Source: Chitinophaga pinensis
GTDB taxonomy: Bacteria > Bacteroidota > Bacteroidia > Chitinophagales > CAIOSU01
Direction of reading: 5' to 3'
Assembly (NCBI GenBank): GCA_945901065.1
Contig: CAMDKI010000011.1
Coordinates: 16,149-80,148, forward strand
Length of the DNA stretch: 64,000 nucleotides
The notes under the pieces were generated by a model that saw only the letters and a program-made list of their open reading frames with translations, had not been told where the DNA came from and ran no database searches. The position numbers were made by a program, and so were the translations under genes. This document shows positions 21,417-58,552 of this stretch, piece after piece (the stretch's first letter is position 1; each line of letters opens with the position of its first letter).

Positions 21417-22373
21417 CTATTTGTAGGTAACCGAAGTTTCCGATACATTTCGCCTTTTGCCTGAAGGGTCGGTGCCGTAAATCTCCGTTTTGGTGGTTAC
21501 CGATGTCAACCAACCGCCGGTGGCATTGTAAACCCAATCGCTGTAATTAGTCATATTAAAAGTAATATCGTCAAACTCAGCATTCTTTTTAGCGATGCTA
21601 CTATCTTCCACGCCAAATGATTTGCCCATTTCGCTCATCATTTCCTTCATCATAGCAACAAAACCCGACATATCAAACTGAATGCTATAGTTCAGGTTGT
21701 AAATACCTTTTCCCTTTTCGGTAAGATAATACAAGTGCGTGGTCGAAATTTCCTCAGAGGCATTAAAGGGGTTCACTTCCGCGCGCTCTACTTTCACCGT
21801 ATCGTTTAGCACAAATGCTTGCGAGTAAGGGGTTAACAAATAATTTATCACGTTTTCCATGTATCCTTCTACCGCCTCTTTTGAACTAAATAAACTCACA
21901 ATAGGATTCATCAGCATTTTAGCATACTCAACATCTTCGGGCAATTTCTTTTTCAGCAGTTTTTCGGCTTGCTCAAATGACTCCAAAATAAAAGCCTTGC
22001 TTTCTTTCCAGTTCAATAAATCGGCCGTGCCACCCAGCTTGTTTACCTGATACATGAGCACCAAACTTTTATATTTCGGAAGCTCATCAGCAATCTTATC
22101 ATACATCTCTACTACTGGCGATAGCGCAATGTTATCCATTGTTACCTTTACCGAGTAGTCTGTTGCACTTTCTTTTATTATTTCAAATACCACCTCAAGC
22201 GTTTCAGTAGTTTCCTCTGTCAACTCATCCCCTTTGTATTCGGTATCGTGGGTTATAATGGTAGCAGTACGCTTATCGCCTACTTTCCACTTTGGCTTAA
22301 ATGAAATTTCAGTTTGTGCAAAAGATGCAATAGCGGTTAACAAAGAAAAAAGTAGCAGTATCTGTTTCGGCAT
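21417..22373 (-). CDS. Secreted hypothetical protein
   Basis: 318 aa. It has a signal peptide (MPKQILLLFSLLTAIASFAQ), coding-like composition, and no recognisable motif. Confidence 0.6.
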   Translation of the reverse strand: MPKQILLLFSLLTAIASFAQTEISFKPKWKVGDKRTATIITHDTEYKGDELTEETTETLEVVFEIIKESATDYSVKVTMDNIALSPVVEMYDKIADELPKYKSLVLMYQVNKLGGTADLLNWKESKAFILESFEQAEKLLKKKLPEDVEYAKMLMNPIVSLFSSKEAVEGYMENVINYLLTPYSQAFVLNDTVKVERAEVNPFNASEEISTTHLYYLTEKGKGIYNLNYSIQFDMSGFVAMMKEMMSEMGKSFGVEDSSIAKKNAEFDDITFNMTNYSDWVYNATGGWLTSVTTKTEIYGTDPSGKRRNVSETSVTYK

Positions 22374-22538
22374 GGCCTTTTTTTTGCTAAGATATTTAAT
22401 TTGGTATCAATAATGGGTAATAAACATCAGCTGAAAGAATTTAAGAAAAGTGCTAGCATTTTTTAGCTCATCAGGCTGTGATATCTATCATGTATTACAG
22501 GCTTATGGGCTAAATTTTTTTTTGCTAACTTTAAAAAT

Positions 22539-23618
22539 ATGAAACCACTATATTATTGCATCCCACTACTCTTATTATCGGGATGCAAAAACGGCAGAGA
22601 ATCTGTAACTGTTGAGCGCAAAAGCATTACCGAATCGGTTTATGCTTCTGGGGTAATTAAAGCTCAAGGCCAATACCAATCTTTTGCATTGGTTAGCGGC
22701 ATCCTTAAGGAGATAAAAGTGAACGAAGGCGATTCGGTATCGATTGGCGATACATTATTTGTAATCGATAGCAGAAGTTCATCTCTTAGCGCAGATAACG
22801 CTGCCTTGGCCTATGAGCTATCGGAAAAGAATGCCAACGCCAATTCAGACAGATTGCAGGAACTGGAAACCGCCAAAAACCTGGCCCTCGAAAAATTGAA
22901 GAACGATAGCCTAATGATGGTGCGCCAACAAAAGCTTTGGCAACAGAACATTGGCTCGAAAGTAGAAGTGGAGCAGCGCGAACTGGCATTCGCAACCTCA
23001 AAAAGCAACTACAAAAGTGCCGTAAACCGACTGGACCAAGCTAAACTGCAATTGGAAAGCGAAAAAAACATGGCACTAAACAACCTTAAAATCAGCAAAA
23101 AGAATGTGGGTGATTTTGTGGTTACAAGCGAATTGAATGGCCGAGTTTACGATATTATGAAAGACCCAGGCGACTTGGTTAGCCCTCAAATACCTTTGGC
23201 CATTGTTGGTAGTGCCGATGCCTTTGTAATGGAGCTGCAGGTTGATGAATATGACATTACCTCGTTGCGCATCGGGCAAAAAGTATTGGTAAGCATGGAT
23301 AGCTATAAAGGGCAGGCATTTGAGGCCGTGTTGAGCAAAATTAACCCGATTATGAACGCCTCCTCGCGCACGTTTATGGTGGAAGCTACCTTTACCAAGC
23401 AACCGGAGGTGCTTTATCCAAACTTAACGGTGGAGGCCAATATTGTTTTAGAAACGCACACAAATGCCCTGATTATACCCTGCTCCTACCTTATACGTGA
23501 TTCGCTGGTGCTTATCTCAGATAAGGATACTACCGAGGTAACTACAAGCTTGCGCAACTACGAGTATGTAGAAATAACCAATGGCATAAGCGAAGGCCAA
23601 AAAATATACAAGCCCTGA
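22539..23618 (+). CDS. HlyD/MFP-family periplasmic adaptor lipoprotein
   Basis: 359 aa. Lipobox LLLSGC, a long coiled-coil middle and beta-barrel-like ends. It is the first gene of a three-gene unit with 1-nt gaps. Confidence 0.8.
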   Translation: MKPLYYCIPLLLLSGCKNGRESVTVERKSITESVYASGVIKAQGQYQSFALVSGILKEIKVNEGDSVSIGDTLFVIDSRSSSLSADNAALAYELSEKNANANSDRLQELETAKNLALEKLKNDSLMMVRQQKLWQQNIGSKVEVEQRELAFATSKSNYKSAVNRLDQAKLQLESEKNMALNNLKISKKNVGDFVVTSELNGRVYDIMKDPGDLVSPQIPLAIVGSADAFVMELQVDEYDITSLRIGQKVLVSMDSYKGQAFEAVLSKINPIMNASSRTFMVEATFTKQPEVLYPNLTVEANIVLETHTNALIIPCSYLIRDSLVLISDKDTTEVTTSLRNYEYVEITNGISEGQKIYKP

Positions 23619-33513: not shown

Positions 33514-34203
33514 TTAAATACTCATGTGCTCTTCATCCTTTATGGTGCCATTACTGCACCTAATAATTCGCGACGGGAATTTCTCGATAATGTGGTAATT
33601 GTGTGTCGCCATAAGCACTGCCGTGTTAAGCTCTTTGTTGAGCATAATAAGTAGTTGCATGATGTCGTCGCTGGTATCTGGGTCAAGGTTTCCGGTAGGC
33701 TCATCCGCCAAAATCAATTTAGGGTCATTGAGCAAAGCCCTGGCTATTGATACGCGCTGTTGCTCGCCACCCGAAAGCTCGTGAGGAAATCTAAAACCTT
33801 TGGTTTGCAAACCCACCTTGCTCAGCACTTCGTCGGCCTTTTGGCTCATTTTTTTTTCGTCGCTCCAGCCAGTGGCCTTCATTACAAACGTCAAATTGTC
33901 AGTAACACTTCTATCGGTAAGCAGCTGGAAATCTTGGAAAACTATACCCAGTTTGCGCCTTAAATAAGGTATATCTTTAGTTTTGAGGGCATTTAAATCA
34001 TAACCTACTACTCTACCGGTTCCTTGGTCGAGCAATAGGTCGCCATACAAGGTTTTCATCAGACTACTTTTGCCACTACCGGTTTTACCAATAAGGTAAA
34101 CAAACTCCCCTTGTTTTACCTCAAGCCCTACCCCATTAAGCACCAAGGTTTTACCTTGGTACACAAATGCATTGTGCAGTTCCAAAATGGTTTCAGCGCT
34201 CAT
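33514..34203 (-). CDS. ftsE: Cell division ATP-binding protein FtsE
   Basis: 229 aa. Walker A GKTGSGKSS, signature LSGGEQQR, Walker [12 protein letters not shown]. Length and sequence are FtsE-like. No ftsX is adjacent. Confidence 0.8.
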   Translation of the reverse strand: MSAETILELHNAFVYQGKTLVLNGVGLEVKQGEFVYLIGKTGSGKSSLMKTLYGDLLLDQGTGRVVGYDLNALKTKDIPYLRRKLGIVFQDFQLLTDRSVTDNLTFVMKATGWSDEKKMSQKADEVLSKVGLQTKGFRFPHELSGGEQQRVSIARALLNDPKLILADEPTGNLDPDTSDDIMQLLIMLNKELNTAVLMATHNYHIIEKFPSRIIRCSNGTIKDEEHMSI

Positions 34204-52687: not shown

Positions 52688-52834
52688 AATTTGAAAATTT
52701 GAAAATTAGGTAATTTGGAAATGGTGTGTTTAGTAATGCAATTAAAAAGGGGAGGTAAACTCAACTTGAAAAGTCTGGACTTAGCCAAAAATCATTTCCA
52801 AATTTTCAAATTTCCTCATTTTCAAATTGAATTA
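52688..52834. repeat. Octamer-array module (AATTTGAA dialect): two inverted arms with ~63-nt spacer
   Basis: The forward arm reads AATTTGAA AATTTGAA AATTAGGT AATTTGGA AATGGTGT (52688-52727). The reverse arm 52791-52834 is the complement of AATTTGAA AATGAGGA AATTTGAA AATTTGGA AATGAT and overlaps the M16 peptidase stop codon. Confidence 0.9.
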
Positions 52835-55762
52835 ATATCCAAAAATTTCTTCCAATTTCAACTCCTTAACGGGGCCCAATTGCTTGAGCACGTTAAAGTC
52901 GATGTCCTTTTTGTTACCCAAAACTAAGAAAGTATAGTTTTTACCCTTGATGTTGGCATCAAAAAAGTTTTTCAGTGCTGCCACATCCATGTTGCGTATG
53001 GCATCATAAATTTCTTTGTTTAGGTCATATTCAACCCCACGGTTGCGGGCACCTTCACGGCTCCAATAAATGTTAGCGCCTGTTGTGCGGGTGCTCTCAA
53101 TCTTTTTCAATGCGGCATCTTTAGCACCTTTAAACTGGGCATCCACTTGCGGCATATCGTTCATCAATAACATCATAGCATCGGTTGCATCTCCTAATTT
53201 ATCGGCTTGCGTACCAATGTATGCGGCAATGTAATGCGACTCGGTGTTTAAGCGCGGCACACTTACATAGGAGTAGGCCGAGTAAGCCAAAGCCTTAGCC
53301 TCGCGTATTTCTTGAAAAACGATTGACGACAAACCTGAACCGAAGTACTCATTGAAAATATTGGTAAACGGCATTAAGGTTTTATCAAACTTAGGACCTT
53401 TGGTAATCAAATAAAGCTCTGCCTGCTTCATATCATAATTTACAAAGTAAACCTGGTTTTTGGTTATCTCTAGTTCAGGGTAAACCACCGGTTTTGGATA
53501 ATCGGCCAAAGTAGCAGGCGATTTATGATATTGCTTTAGTACCTCTACTACCGTAGCTGGCTTTTGGGTACCGTAATAGAACATACGGTGCTTGAAACCG
53601 ATAAGTCCTTTCAACTTTTCGGTTAACTCTATGCCTTTTAGTTGTTTCAAATCGGCTGTGCTCAAATTGCGGGTAAATGGCGAAATGGAACCATACTTGG
53701 CATAATTTACCATGCCCCCGTTCAATATTGCTCCTTTGTTCTTTTTGTTATCCGAGCGCTTTTTCAATTCACCATCAATTTGGTTGGCAAGGGCCTTATC
53801 GTCGGGCTGCACCGATGACAAAATGTGCTCAAACAGTTTAACGCCGTCAGTAAATGACTCATCCAAGCCACTCAAGGTAACATATACCCTATCTCGGCTC
53901 GTAAATACATCAAAACTCAAACCAAGTTTAAAAAACTCCTTTTGTAGGTCTTGTGCAGTAAACTTATCGGTACCTAAGTAGGGCAAATACTCAATAGCCA
54001 AACCCAATTTCTGGTCGTTATCAGTACCCATATCAAAAATATAGTACAGGCTAAAAAGGCCATTCACATCGTTGGCTATGTAGCTCACCGGTATACCATT
54101 GCCAAGCGTTGTTTCAGTTATGAGCTTATCGTATTCTAAAAACTGGGCTGCTAACCTGTCTGAAGCTATGGTGTCAAAGTGGGTATAAAACGCCGAGGCC
54201 GTATCGCGGTTCATTACCACTGGGGTAATTACCGGCTTCTCAACCTTGTGTCGGTTAGGGTCTTCGCCGAAGTTTTTATACACCGCTACATAGTTATCAG
54301 CAAACTTGGCTTTGGTCCAATCTACCAAATCCTGCTTTTTTATTTTCGACATTTCGTCCAACTCAAAAATATAGTTGCTCCAATTGGCTCCACGGATAAA
54401 GGCATCTACAAAGTAATCGGCGCGGCTGCTGTTGCTTTCCAGTTCGCGCATACGGTTCAGCTTCAGGTTTTTAATGCAGGCATCAATCAACCAATCATCA
54501 AACTGCCCTTGTTTTACCAATTCAATTTGCGCTACCAACGAATCTTTTACTTGCTGCAAACTCTGCCCTTCGCGGGGCTGACCATACAAGGTAAATGCGC
54601 TGTAATCTACCATTTCTACAATTCCGGCCGAAGCACCCAATACGGTTTGCTTTTGGTTAAGGTTTAAGTCAATTAAGCCCGCCTGTCCATTGCTCAACAC
54701 TTCGCCCAACAGTTTGCCCATGATGGCATCTTTAGTGCCGGCACCATCCAATCGGTAACCCACGCGCACGTGCTCTGGCTGCACACCCGTTACTGTTACT
54801 TCTGTAGATTTGGCCAATGGCTCCTCTTTGGTAAACGAGAAAGGCTCAACATCTTTCTTTTGCCATTTGCCAAAGTACTGGTCAATCATGGCAATAGTTT
54901 TGTCAGGGTCTAAATCGCCAGAAAGGCAAATAGCCATATTGTTGGGCACATAGTACTTATCAAAGTAGTTGTGTATGTTCACCATGCTCGGGTTCTTCAG
55001 GTGCTCGCCTTCGCCAATGGTGGTTTGTGTACCATAAGGGTGGTTCGGGAACAACCCTTTGTACATTTCCTGCCACGATTTGCGGGTATCGCTATCCTCA
55101 CCACGGTTAAACTCTTCGTAAACCGTCTCTAACTCGGTATGGAACAAGCGCAATACCAACGTTTGGAAACGCTCCGACTCCACCATCATCCATTTTTCCA
55201 ACTCGTTGCTAGGTATATCGTTTACGTACACGGTTTGCTCAACCCAAGTGTATGCGTTGGTTCCGATAGCACCCAACGATGAAATCATTTTATCGTATTC
55301 GTTTGGCACGGCAAATTTAGAAGCCTCATGCGACAGGCTATCAATTTGGTGGTAAAGGGCTTTTTTCTGCTCAGGGTCGGCAGTTTGGCGGTGTTGCTCA
55401 TACAAAGCACTTATTTGGTCTAGCACCACTTTCTCTGCTTCCCAATTGATGGTTCCCATTTTGTGCGTACCCTTAAACACCATGTGCTCTAGGTAGTGCG
55501 CCAAACCGGTAGTTTCTTTTGGGTCTGATTTTGAACCGGCGCGCACCGCAATATAGGTTTGCACCCTAGGTTCTTTGGCATTTACGGTAAGGTATACTTT
55601 CAAACCATTGTCGAGGGTATAAATGCGGGCATCCAATGGGTCGTTGGGCACCGACTCGTATTTGTATTTTGATTCAACAGCGGTTGTTTCCTTGTCGCCA
55701 CAACCAACAGCAAACAATGCAGGTAACAATATCAATAACAAACGGAGAATATTGGATTTCAT
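52832..55762 (-). CDS. M16-family (insulinase/pitrilysin-like) zinc peptidase lipoprotein
   Basis: 976 aa. Lipobox LFAVGC and the inverted zincin motif HYLEHMVFKG (HxxEH). Confidence 0.85.
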   Translation of the reverse strand: MKSNILRLLLILLPALFAVGCGDKETTAVESKYKYESVPNDPLDARIYTLDNGLKVYLTVNAKEPRVQTYIAVRAGSKSDPKETTGLAHYLEHMVFKGTHKMGTINWEAEKVVLDQISALYEQHRQTADPEQKKALYHQIDSLSHEASKFAVPNEYDKMISSLGAIGTNAYTWVEQTVYVNDIPSNELEKWMMVESERFQTLVLRLFHTELETVYEEFNRGEDSDTRKSWQEMYKGLFPNHPYGTQTTIGEGEHLKNPSMVNIHNYFDKYYVPNNMAICLSGDLDPDKTIAMIDQYFGKWQKKDVEPFSFTKEEPLAKSTEVTVTGVQPEHVRVGYRLDGAGTKDAIMGKLLGEVLSNGQAGLIDLNLNQKQTVLGASAGIVEMVDYSAFTLYGQPREGQSLQQVKDSLVAQIELVKQGQFDDWLIDACIKNLKLNRMRELESNSSRADYFVDAFIRGANWSNYIFELDEMSKIKKQDLVDWTKAKFADNYVAVYKNFGEDPNRHKVEKPVITPVVMNRDTASAFYTHFDTIASDRLAAQFLEYDKLITETTLGNGIPVSYIANDVNGLFSLYYIFDMGTDNDQKLGLAIEYLPYLGTDKFTAQDLQKEFFKLGLSFDVFTSRDRVYVTLSGLDESFTDGVKLFEHILSSVQPDDKALANQIDGELKKRSDNKKNKGAILNGGMVNYAKYGSISPFTRNLSTADLKQLKGIELTEKLKGLIGFKHRMFYYGTQKPATVVEVLKQYHKSPATLADYPKPVVYPELEITKNQVYFVNYDMKQAELYLITKGPKFDKTLMPFTNIFNEYFGSGLSSIVFQEIREAKALAYSAYSYVSVPRLNTESHYIAAYIGTQADKLGDATDAMMLLMNDMPQVDAQFKGAKDAALKKIESTRTTGANIYWSREGARNRGVEYDLNKEIYDAIRNMDVAALKNFFDANIKGKNYTFLVLGNKKDIDFNVLKQLGPVKELKLEEIFGY

Positions 55763-55773
55763 ATTGGGTAGTA

Positions 55774-57576
55774 TTATAGGTCGAATTTCAAGTCTAAGTT
55801 ATCTTTTAATTTCAAAATAGCGGGATTCTTTTCCGCCATGAGGGCCAGTTTTTCTTTGCTACTAAAAGCCTTACGAGGGGCATTTGCTTCGGCAAGGCTT
55901 CTGTCTACCTCTACTTCGACCACTAACCGCTGCAAGGTCATATGGGCCATTATAAAATCGCGGAAGGCAATGCGCTCACCTTCAAATAAGTCGCGCTCTA
56001 CGGTATTGCCCAGCACCACTTTAACCTTACCATCTTGCAAACGATAAGCGCTGCGCTCCAACAAGCTTTGCATGCTCAACTTATTATCGCTGCCGAGTTT
56101 TGCTTTAAAAGCAGTCCAAGCCGCCGCCAGTTTGGTTTCATCAATTACATCTAACGGAATGCTCTCATCCTCTTCTTCCTTCTTAGGGGCTTCGGGTTTG
56201 TTTTGTTTGGCTGATGATAAACTAAAACCGGTGATACCGCCACCTGCGCCCATGCCTCCGGTTGTTGGCATTTGCCTGGCTTGTGTTGGTGTTGATGTTG
56301 AGACCGGTTTGGTTGCCTCTGTTGATGGTTGCTTGGTTTCTGGTGCCGAAACAGGATTAACCGCCTCAGGAGCTGCAACGGGAGCATTAGCAGCTATTGT
56401 TTGTGGCTGGTTAGCAGGCTTTTGTGCAGCGGGTTGCGGCGCTACTTGCTCAGCACTAGAGTTTTTTTTTGTGGCCTCGCCGTTTGAGGCAAGTTGCATT
56501 GCGGTTGGCAAGTAGCACATCTTCATTATCGCCAGCTCTACATGCAGGCGCTTGTTTCGGCTGGTTTTAAAACTCACCTCGCATTGTGCGGCCAAATTCA
56601 GGGCATTAAGCAAAAAGCCCATCGGTATCAAAATGCCTTGCTGGTGGTAGCGGTCTTTCAAAATACCGCTTACCTCAAGCACTTTAATCGTTTCAGGGTC
56701 GCGGGCTACCATAAGGTTACGGAAATGGTCGGCCAATCCACCAATAAACATATCGCCTTCAAAACCCTTCCTAATAATCTCATCAAAGCTCAACATCAGG
56801 CCTGTTAGGTCTTGGGTCAGCAATTGGTCGGTTATGCGGAAATAGTAATCGTAATCGAGTATGTTTAAATTAACCAACACATTATCATACGTCAGTTGGC
56901 GCGTGCTATAATCTACCAACCTATCAAACAGGGAGAGCGCATCGCGCAGGGCACCATCAGCCTTTTGCGCAATAATGTGCAGGGCATTAGGGTCGGCCGT
57001 GATGTTTTCAGTCTGGCAAATACCTTCCAAATGCTTCACCGTATCGTCAATGGTAATGCGGTTGAAATCGTATATCTGGCAACGCGAAAGAATGGTCGGG
57101 ATAATCTTGTGCTTCTCGGTGGTAGCCAAAATGAAAATGGCATAACCAGGTGGCTCTTCCAACGTTTTCAGGAACGCGTTAAAAGCTTGATTAGAAAGCA
57201 TGTGCACCTCATCAATGATATACACTTTGTATTTAGCACCTTGCGGTGGAACACGCACTTGGTCTACCAACGATCTTATATCTTCAACAGAGTTGTTGGA
57301 TGCCGCATCCAGCTCATAAACGTTGAAGCTCTCATCAAGGGCTTTTTCGCTCTTCGGGTCGAAGTTATCTACCTCTTGGGTAGAGTTTATCATTTGGGCA
57401 AGGATACGGGCACAGGTAGTTTTGCCCACACCGCGCGGGCCACAAAATAGTAGCGCATGAGCCAAATGCCCACTGCGTATGGCATTTTTGAGTGTGTTGG
57501 TTACACCCTCCTGCCCTACTACTTCCTCAAACTTCCTCGGGCGATATTTCCGCGCCGATACCACATATTGCTCCAT
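55774..57576 (-). CDS. dnaX: DNA polymerase III subunits gamma/tau
   Basis: ATG at 57576 (MEQYVVSARKYRPRKFEEVVGQ). Walker A GPRGVGKTT, IIDEVHML, then a Pro/Ala/Gln linker. An A9 run lies at 56462-56470 just after the conserved N-terminal ATPase part of the protein. Confidence 0.9.
   Translation of the reverse strand: MEQYVVSARKYRPRKFEEVVGQEGVTNTLKNAIRSGHLAHALLFCGPRGVGKTTCARILAQMINSTQEVDNFDPKSEKALDESFNVYELDAASNNSVEDIRSLVDQVRVPPQGAKYKVYIIDEVHMLSNQAFNAFLKTLEEPPGYAIFILATTEKHKIIPTILSRCQIYDFNRITIDDTVKHLEGICQTENITADPNALHIIAQKADGALRDALSLFDRLVDYSTRQLTYDNVLVNLNILDYDYYFRITDQLLTQDLTGLMLSFDEIIRKGFEGDMFIGGLADHFRNLMVARDPETIKVLEVSGILKDRYHQQGILIPMGFLLNALNLAAQCEVSFKTSRNKRLHVELAIMKMCYLPTAMQLASNGEATKKNSSAEQVAPQPAAQKPANQPQTIAANAPVAAPEAVNPVSAPETKQPSTEATKPVSTSTPTQARQMPTTGGMGAGGGITGFSLSSAKQNKPEAPKKEEEDESIPLDVIDETKLAAAWTAFKAKLGSDNKLSMQSLLERSAYRLQDGKVKVVLGNTVERDLFEGERIAFRDFIMAHMTLQRLVVEVEVDRSLAEANAPRKAFSSKEKLALMAEKNPAILKLKDNLDLKFDL
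56462..56470 (-). other. dnaX: A9 slippery run in dnaX (candidate frameshift / transcriptional slippage site)
   Basis: The minus strand reads GCC ACA AAA AAA AAC TCT AGT. The -1 frame gives AAA CTC TAG and the +1 frame gives ACT CTA GTG CTG AGC AAG TAG. Confidence 0.4.
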
Positions 57577-57635: not shown

Positions 57636-57853
57636 AAAAACGGGAATTAGATTTTAACGCCCCAAAGGGGCACCATACTAATAGCCGTGGGCAACGCCCT
57701 CGGCACAAAATGCCAATATTGGATACGACAAATGTGAATCCAAGGCAGCATGTGCGTAACTTCTGTTAAGTGTTCATTATTTTTTTCATATACTTTGATG
57801 TATCCACTATGGACTACTTATCTTTGCAACGCAATCAACAAATCCTCCTTCCA

Positions 57854-58552
57854 ATGAAAATACAAATGGTAATGTTCGACATGGCCGGAACCACCGTACA
57901 TGACAATGATGACGTAAATATTTGCTTTCAAGCTGCCCTAAAAAGCACTGGCTTGCCTATTTCCCGTGACGACATTAATGCTGTGATGGGCTTACAGAAA
58001 CCGCTGGCCATTCGTTTGGTTTTGGAAAGCAAATTGACCGACCATAGCACGATTACGGAGGAATATGTAAATGAGCTGCACGATGTATTTTTGAGCGAAA
58101 CTATCAATTTCTACAAAAACGACCCGCGTGTAAAGGAAATTGAAGGTGCCAGTGATGTGTTCCGTGCACTGAAGGCTGCGGACATTAAAGTGGCCATTGA
58201 TAGTGGTTTCAGCCGTGATATTATCGATACTATTATTGAGCGCCTAGGTTGGGAACGTGATGGCTTGATTGACATTAGCGTAGCCAGCGACGAAGTGTCA
58301 CAAGGCCGCCCAGCTGCATACATGATACAAAAAGCCATGGCTGCCTTCGGTATTACCGACCCGAAAGCCGTAGCTAAAGTTGGAGATACACCTGCCGACT
58401 TGAACGAAGGCTACAATAGCCACACTGCTTATAACATTGGCGTGTTGAGCGGTGCTTGCACCCGTGCCGAATTAGAAGCACACCCACACACGCATATTTT
58501 AGAAAGCATACGTGAAGTGCCTGCTTTGGTTGCCGGAGTATTGGTAGATTAG
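57854..58552 (+). CDS. Phosphonatase-like HAD hydrolase (PhnX-like)
   Basis: ATG at 57854 gives MKIQMVMFDMAGTTV (HAD motif I DxxGT) and VGDTPADL (motif IV). It is paired with phnW downstream. Alternative starts are 57809 and 57770. Confidence 0.7.
   Translation: MKIQMVMFDMAGTTVHDNDDVNICFQAALKSTGLPISRDDINAVMGLQKPLAIRLVLESKLTDHSTITEEYVNELHDVFLSETINFYKNDPRVKEIEGASDVFRALKAADIKVAIDSGFSRDIIDTIIERLGWERDGLIDISVASDEVSQGRPAAYMIQKAMAAFGITDPKAVAKVGDTPADLNEGYNSHTAYNIGVLSGACTRAELEAHPHTHILESIREVPALVAGVLVD

Follow-up and report, generated by a model that had tools for sequence, protein, structure and literature searches.

A conserved A9 run at the gamma/tau boundary of a Chitinophaga dnaX gene as a probable site of programmed transcriptional slippage

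We analyzed a 64,000-nucleotide (nt) stretch of Chitinophaga pinensis DNA (assembly GCA_945901065.1, contig CAMDKI010000011.1, positions 16,149 to 80,148; hereafter the window), with a focus on a run of nine adenines (A9) in dnaX, the gene that encodes gamma and tau of DNA polymerase III. This run is probably a programmed transcriptional slippage site of the type found in Thermus thermophilus dnaX, with a hairpin in the nascent RNA possibly helping. Sequence comparisons across Bacteroidota, which revealed conservation of the run, close stops in both shifted frames and constraint on synonymous sites, strongly support the view that this is a selected recoding site. The same features support the proposal of an earlier first-pass annotation that a truncated, gamma-like product arises here, the product itself being a prediction.

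The run lies on the minus strand at 56470..56462 (T9 in the template), within a single dnaX open reading frame (ORF) of 600 codons plus stop (57576..55774, minus strand, ATG at 57576). The minus strand at the site reads GGC GAG GCC ACA AAA AAA AAC TCT AGT, which places the run in the register A_AAA_AAA_AAC over codons T369–N372. It begins at the third position of codon T369 (nucleotide 1107 of the gene), 62% into the ORF and 10 codons past the end of domain III. Inside the run is an in-phase slippery heptamer, A_AAA_AAA (X_XXY_YYZ), and a GAGG motif is located 5-8 nt upstream. Both shifted frames close soon after the run, while the zero frame remains open for 688 nt. The -1 frame (AAA CTC TAG) ends at a TAG 6 nt past the run (56458..56456, minus strand), reached after the addition of one A or a -1 ribosomal shift; the +1 frame (ACT CTA GTG CTG AGC AAG TAG) contains six sense codons before a TAG 20 nt past the run (56444..56442, minus strand), reached after the loss of one A or the gain of two. 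The first-pass annotation had described the A9 at 56462-56470, its heptamer register, its place near codon 370 of about 600, and immediate stops after two (-1) and six (+1) codons, and all of these agreed with the sequence. The occurrence of an A9 is by itself no more than expected by chance, as the window contains 3 A9/T9 runs against 5.7 +/- 3.1 in dinucleotide shuffles; it is position and conservation that carry the significance.

The position of the run coincides with the boundary between the two parts of the protein. The product was identified by NCBIfam NF011531 ('DNA polymerase III subunit gamma/tau'; 692.9 bits, cut-off 685), by TIGR02397 (dnaX_nterm; 379 bits, residues 4-354) and by Pfam matches to DNA_pol3_delta2, DNAX_ATPase_lid and DNA_pol3_gamma3, with domain III (PF12169) at residues 241-359; a protein search returned an identical public protein (P0001) and a graded series of relatives. 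According to the ORF listing, the standard product is tau, 600 amino acids in length. Domains I-III (residues 1-359; 56500..57576, minus strand), delimited by TIGR02397, PF12169 and an alignment to the E. coli tau/gamma structure, form the clamp-loader core that tau and the predicted gamma would have in common. The region 55774..56461 (minus strand) encodes the tau-only part, a Pro/Ala/Gln-rich linker and a C-terminal domain (PF28557, precomputed match), which the predicted gamma would lack. The run had been placed just past the N-terminal ATPase part and before the linker, and the ends of the TIGR02397 and PF12169 matches at residues 354 and 359 bear this out. In the alignment to E. coli tau, the run matches approximately residues 371-373 of the E. 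coli protein, where the crystallised gamma core (1JR3, residues 1-373) ends.

Analysis of dnaX DNA from nine relatives, found by protein search, revealed A9 in the same phase in eight relatives with the frame intact through the run, six of them close (74-93% protein identity) and two more distant (57-59%). K370 and K371 were invariant in the 20 closest proteins. The off-frame stops shifted their place among relatives yet persisted; L168 and L170, for instance, have a TGA at +12 as their -1 stop in place of the TAG at +6. Synonymous variation over the first 393 codons was examined in a set of seven sequences, from the window and the six close relatives. In this stretch, 29% of the amino-acid-conserved, synonymously changeable codons were invariant at the nucleotide level, and variation was lowest at codons 358-375. 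In intervals of 12 codons this invariance had a mean of 0.28 (standard deviation, 0.19), and the twelve most invariant intervals, with values of 0.75-1.0, all started at codons 358-369, spanning the run together with its preceding 30 nt. One further relative, P0025/L167 (368 amino acids, GCA_046766215.1), was considered as a two-ORF form of the gene and rejected, since its frame break lies ~15-20 nt upstream of the A9 and not at the run itself; through the A9, its tau frame continues in the usual phase. The break probably reflects an assembly indel on the contig, which is short (2774 bp) and of low coverage.

A second coding A9 in the window served as a negative control. It lies at 33849-33857 (minus strand) in an ORF for an FtsE-like ABC ATPase (34203..33514), where GAC GAA AAA AAA ATG encodes DEKKM, and a +1-frame TGA directly follows it. 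In relatives at ~90% identity, DEKKM had become DKKAM, DERAM or DEKAM, and the run was lost. The public protein P0124 equals the FtsE-like protein minus one lysine and is otherwise identical, which therefore points to a 3-nt difference in run length.

To extend the comparison to the phylum, we collected dnaX loci from one-genome-per-species and metagenome collections with a conserved Walker-B peptide as query. Among the matches listed, 160 loci were sampled, all from Bacteroidota and 36-64% identical to the query, of which 157 extend to the boundary. Each locus was anchored by tblastn with the N-terminal 360 residues, and a run was defined as at least 9 As located 0-70 codons past domain III. 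A run of A9-A12 was present at the gamma/tau boundary in 118 of the 157 loci (A9 in 9, A10 in 94, A11 in 12 and A12 in 3), and all 118 sequence contexts were distinct. By comparison, the 272 kb of DNA flanking these loci contained only 15 A-runs of 9 or longer. The run was in codon phase 0 in 17 loci, phase 1 in 64 and phase 2 in 36, and the residues that it encodes therefore differ between lineages. No locus had the run interrupted by AAG, the codon used for 27% of the lysines in these genes. A position-frequency profile of 30 nt on either side revealed no conservation of flanking bases other than a mild enrichment of G at -3 to -7. As read from these sequences, the constraint at the run is one on nucleotides rather than on amino acids.

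In every assessable locus, exactly one frame was open for more than 300 nt past the run, and the other two were shut within 47 nt. The nearer off-frame stop was located at a median of 6 nt (maximum 24), compared with 16 nt at random positions of the same genes (Mann-Whitney p 1e-35), and the farther one at a median of 15 nt (maximum 47), compared with 55 nt (p 1e-56); in the majority of loci, the -1 stop was the nearer one. An alignment of orthologues, the check suggested along with the first-pass annotation, thus revealed that the run and the near off-frame stops are conserved, both in 8 of 8 relatives with a continuous frame and in the 118 of 157 loci of the survey.

The frame that encodes the tau part differed among loci: 91 had it in the zero frame, 22 in the -1 frame and 4 in the +1 frame (L053, L074, L078 and L120). 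Accordingly, dnaX was split into two ORFs in 26 loci (L026, L027, L040, L053, L062, L064, L066, L068, L070, L071, L074-L078, L080, L112, L120, L121, L125, L126, L129, L133, L134, L137 and L144), in which the zero frame ends 3-19 nt past the run. The two ORFs overlap by a few nt and the run lies inside the overlap; in several of the split genes, the last upstream stop in the tau frame is a TGA that overlaps the first A of the run. In these 26 loci, tau can consequently be made only through a frame change at the run. The combination of A10 with tau in the -1 frame recurred in L075, L134, L137 and L144.

Of the loci without a long run, 28 contained no run of six or more As near the boundary and 11 had only A6-A8. 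They belong mostly to Bacteroides, Bacteroidaceae, Rikenellaceae and other Bacteroidales (for example, L024, L044, L050, L057, L059, L072, L079, L083, L088 and L094), and in most of them no in-phase slippery heptamer was found near the boundary. Two loci, L033 (~2613-2690) and L113 (~2625-2700), contained instead of the long run a GGAGGG, a 9-nt spacer and an in-phase A_AAA_AAG, followed by a UGA one codon on in the -1 frame and by a GC-rich hairpin of 6 bp that begins 6 nt downstream. The frameshift cassette of E. coli dnaX has this layout, although an Rfam scan of L033 and L113 gave no match. Separately, L050 contained an in-phase run of at least 7 Gs with a -1 stop one codon on, and L005 (Pontibacter) an A7 with a -1 stop one codon on.

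Folding of the sequence around the run revealed structure on its upstream side. In the window, the sense strand can form the hairpin CUUGCC-ucaaac-GGCGAG (56493..56476, minus strand), a candidate slippage stimulator that ends 5 nt before the run, or alternatively GCCUC-aaacggc-GAGGC, which ends 3 nt before it. The minimum free energy (MFE) was -9.1 kcal/mol, with z-scores of -1.5 in a 32-nt and -2.7 in a 24-nt folding frame. The hairpin was retained with stem-strengthening changes in L162-L166, and it sits in the zone of strongest synonymous constraint. For 118 loci, a 32-nt folding frame was moved along the 200 nt that precede the run. The sole outlier was the position ending exactly at the run, where the mean MFE was -6.06 kcal/mol against ~-3.2 elsewhere and 29% of loci, against ~9% elsewhere, had z < -2. 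A hairpin of -4 kcal/mol or lower that ended 0-6 nt before the run was present in 72 of 119 loci, compared with 19-30 of 119 at four control offsets. After reduction to 78 sequence clusters and with dinucleotide shuffles, the mean z was -0.89 against 0.00 to -0.23 in the controls (Mann-Whitney p 4e-6 for z-scores; paired Wilcoxon p 3e-7).

The stems varied by lineage. In Flavobacteriaceae, the stem CUCUAUCA-cuuu-UGAUGGAG is directly followed by A10; the corresponding stems are ACUGCUUCG-gauau-CGAAGCGGU in L125, CGCUUGUG-ucaacu-CACAAGCG in L074 and GCCGCGCC-aaac-GGCGAGGC in Hymenobacter. A fixed-register count of pairs in Flavobacteriia gave 81% paired cells, compared with 39-59% when the partners were slid, and included two double-change pairs. 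RNAalifold found no consensus for the Flavobacteriia hairpins, because their stems lie in different registers. On the downstream side, no structure was detected relative to shuffles in the 62 nt past the run in the window (z -0.29), nor in the 50-62 nt past the run in 119 loci (mean z -0.32 against -0.31 in the control). An Rfam scan of the window site returned only chance-level matches and no DnaX element (RF00382). By analogy, the layout of hairpin and run resembles both hairpin-stimulated slippage sites and intrinsic terminators. The enriched structure lies upstream and not downstream, which lends further support to a transcriptional mechanism.

In the slippage mechanism that we propose, the 9-bp RNA:DNA hybrid over the T9 template would consist entirely of rA:dT pairs, which would allow the nascent RNA to realign and would give rise to a population of messenger RNAs (mRNAs) with A-runs of differing length. 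The hairpin in the nascent RNA, 3-5 nt upstream, may destabilise the upstream end of the hybrid. Unslipped A9 mRNA would yield tau of 600 amino acids, and A12 mRNA a tau with one additional lysine (601 amino acids; ...ATKKKNSS at the run). On A10 mRNA, translation would reach the TAG after two codons and give a product of 373 amino acids that comprises domains I-III only and ends in ...ATKKKL. A8 and A11 mRNAs would yield 377 and 378 amino acids, ending in ...ATKKTLVLSK and ...ATKKKTLVLSK, respectively.

Several features favor slippage over -1 ribosomal frameshifting. Runs of 9-12 As have been kept where a heptamer of 7 would do, and both off-frame stops have been kept near the run where one would be enough for a -1 shift. 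The tau part is found in either shifted frame among orthologues, which indicates a transcriptional mechanism under the criterion of Antonov et al. 2013 (PMC3711429), who took frame changes in both directions as its mark. The absence of downstream structure and of an Rfam DnaX element at the window site likewise fits the Thermus route, not the E. coli route.

The T. thermophilus dnaX A9 is the closest known counterpart. Reviews citing Larsen et al. 2000 (PNAS 97:1683) describe transcriptional slippage there as experimentally established, with ~50% gamma and with stops in both other frames. The window shares with it the gene, the A9, tau as one continuous ORF, near stops in both other frames and, as predicted here, a shorter product without the tau-specific C-terminus. 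The two differ in phylum and in that the window run lies directly at the end of domain III and is a predicted rather than an established slippage site; moreover, the window run is preceded by a hairpin, and none is described for Thermus in the searchable literature. Antonov et al. 2013 reported 17 two-ORF dnaX genes and predicted slippage; nine of them have A10, among these the genes of Flavobacterium johnsoniae, F. psychrophilum, Cytophaga hutchinsonii and Capnocytophaga ochracea, which belong to the phylum of the window, and two-ORF A10 forms are also given for Chlorobi and Coraliomargarita (PMC3711429, Fig. S3). The run and site are homologous, the predicted mechanism is the same, and 26 such loci were recovered here. 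In those genes, however, the zero frame ends just past A10 and tau needs a frame change, whereas in the window one ORF of 600 codons contains the A9, with tau in the zero frame and gamma as the predicted recoded product. Sharma et al. 2014 (PMC4066793) noted that a search for disrupted ORFs is blind to shorter recoded products, and the window is such a case. The +1 two-ORF arrangement is not among the -1 cases of Antonov 2013.

A hairpin 5' adjacent to the motif in nascent RNA is a documented stimulator of slippage, according to a review. Destabilisation of the hybrid at its upstream end is the role reported for the hairpin at the slippage site of the Roseiflexus IS630 element (Penno et al. 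2015) and for intrinsic-terminator hairpins. The likeness to our site is the terminator-like layout, with a candidate hairpin in the nascent RNA just 5' of a slippage-prone motif. The Roseiflexus motif is short (T5C5), fully hairpin-dependent and gives a specific one-base deletion, whereas a run as long as that of the window can slip without such help in other bacteria, and the hairpin is enriched but not universal. The searchable, incomplete literature yielded no paper that deals with dnaX runs in single-ORF genes of Bacteroidota, with how frequent they are or with the upstream hairpin. The slippage mechanism and the A10 two-ORF forms were known already, and the window is a predictable and, on the sequence evidence, well-supported further candidate. 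The run frequency of ~75%, the three frame arrangements, the hairpin enrichment and the E. coli-like swap in L033 and L113 form a modest extension of the published picture.

A number of observations weigh against the slippage interpretation. A9-A10 always contains an in-phase A_AAA_AAA, and a -1 ribosomal shift would yield the same ...ATKKKL product. Support for the window hairpin is moderate (z -1.5 to -2.7); it lies 3-5 nt from the run, where the modal distance is 0-1 nt, and L169 and L170, the A9 relatives at greater distance, do not have it. Covariation in the Flavobacteriia hairpins offers modest support. If slippage on A9 is efficient, the genome would bear its cost at the coding A9 of the FtsE-like gene as well, and if RNA polymerase slips there too, some of that gene's transcripts would be out of frame. 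No RNA or protein work on dnaX of this organism or of any Bacteroidota was found in the searchable literature. An exact look-up of the predicted A8, A10, A11 and A12 products among 15 billion proteins returned none, a result that is uninformative about RNA.

The same ...ATKKKL product could come from ribosomal recoding, either by -1 frameshifting at A_AAA_AAA as in E. coli, in which two lysine transfer RNAs (tRNAs) would re-pair one base back and meet the TAG two codons on, or by sliding on AAA codons, alone or alongside slippage. In E. coli dnaX, according to reviews, the -1 frameshift occurs at A_AAA_AAG with an upstream Shine-Dalgarno-like AGGGAG and a downstream stem-loop. The window shares with this system the gene, the predicted division into gamma (domains I-III) and full-length tau, an in-phase A-rich heptamer and a -1 stop within two codons. 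The -1 stop, which in most loci is met first, and the upstream GAGG, with the mild G enrichment across loci, would also fit, and the cassettes of L033 and L113 make ribosomal shifting at this boundary plausible in the phylum. No tRNA genes were found in the window from which the repertoire for lysine could be read. In contrast to E. coli, however, neither the window nor the family has a downstream stem-loop and Rfam finds no DnaX element; the heptamer ends in A and not G, and in E. coli, according to a review, A_AAA_AAA shifts far less readily than A_AAA_AAG. The run is also longer than needed and under selection at that length, the +1 stop is likewise held near it, and the site is ~57 residues nearer to domain III. 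A -1 shift cannot yield tau in the four loci with tau in the +1 frame. Upstream is also where the enriched structure lies, and such hairpins are reported to attenuate rather than stimulate -1 frameshifting (PMC6321510). These differences lead us to regard ribosomal recoding as rather unlikely. Ribosomes of Bacteroidota, moreover, make little use of Shine-Dalgarno pairing.

It is very improbable that no recoding takes place, with the run merely encoding a Lys-Lys linker, the stops incidental, and gamma either unmade or produced by proteolysis, as the review literature describes for Caulobacter. The invariance of K370 and K371, the number of A9 runs in the window, which is not above that in shuffles, the second coding A9 in the FtsE-like gene and the lack of a run in about a quarter of the sampled Bacteroidota dnaX, mostly from Bacteroidales, would all be compatible with such a view. 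Across the phylum, however, the encoded residues vary with codon phase while the As are invariant and AAG never appears; the off-frame stops are much nearer than the null, synonymous sites around the run are frozen, and the control run decays within ~10% protein divergence. In the 26 two-ORF loci, tau cannot arise at all unless the frame changes within the run. It seems hardly credible that the run is a contingency locus at the DNA level, in which replication slippage would cause heritable switching between tau-encoding and gamma-only alleles. Homopolymer tracts are classic sites of phase variation, run lengths range from 9 to 12 with three frame arrangements among species, and the FtsE-like variant shorter by one lysine (3 nt) is an otherwise identical protein. 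Run length and frame are, however, stable within clades (A9 in phase 2 in all continuous-frame relatives; A10 with a -1-frame tau in L075, L134, L137 and L144), and the predicted A8, A10, A11 and A12 products are absent from public assemblies. dnaX is essential, and a gamma-only cell would be without the tau that holds the polymerase.

Transcriptional slippage at the run thus remains the reading that we prefer for the window. Extended to the phylum, it may be, with evidence that we find evenly poised, that most Bacteroidota make tau and gamma through a terminator-like cassette of a hairpin and A9-A12 acting at RNA polymerase, that the tau C-terminus has moved freely among the 0, -1 and +1 frames, that a few lineages have swapped the cassette for an E. 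coli-like one, and that many Bacteroidales have lost it. Slippage would feed all three frames, and the tau C-terminus would therefore be free to change frame.

The genes around dnaX had a conserved order. An M16-family peptidase of 976 amino acids (52832-55762, minus strand) begins 12 nt past the dnaX stop, and a HAD-family hydrolase (57770-58552, plus strand) is divergent from dnaX; the order HAD-family hydrolase, dnaX, M16-family peptidase was retained in close relatives (L161-L170). The lineage is an uncultured one within Bacteroidota, and the named relatives nearest to its genes are metagenome-assembled genomes labelled Chitinophagales. Elsewhere in the window, a T8 (22378-22385) and a T9 (22515-22523, plus strand) are located in a 165-nt gap between the divergent ORFs 21417..22373 (minus strand) and 22539..23618 (plus strand), probably an A/T-rich promoter region.

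The ratio of tau to gamma sets the number of polymerases that the clamp loader can hold. If this ratio is set by infidelity of RNA polymerase in most Bacteroidota, the phylum, including model and host-associated species, would differ from E. coli in the level of gene expression used. For annotation, gamma would be invisible to gene callers in single-ORF genomes, and two-ORF dnaX genes are liable to be called pseudogenes or split genes. The combination of hairpin and run would offer a natural system, in an essential gene, for how the structure of nascent RNA tunes slippage, and cassettes of the run type and of the heptamer type, both present at this site, suggest that transcriptional and translational recoding may replace each other over evolution.

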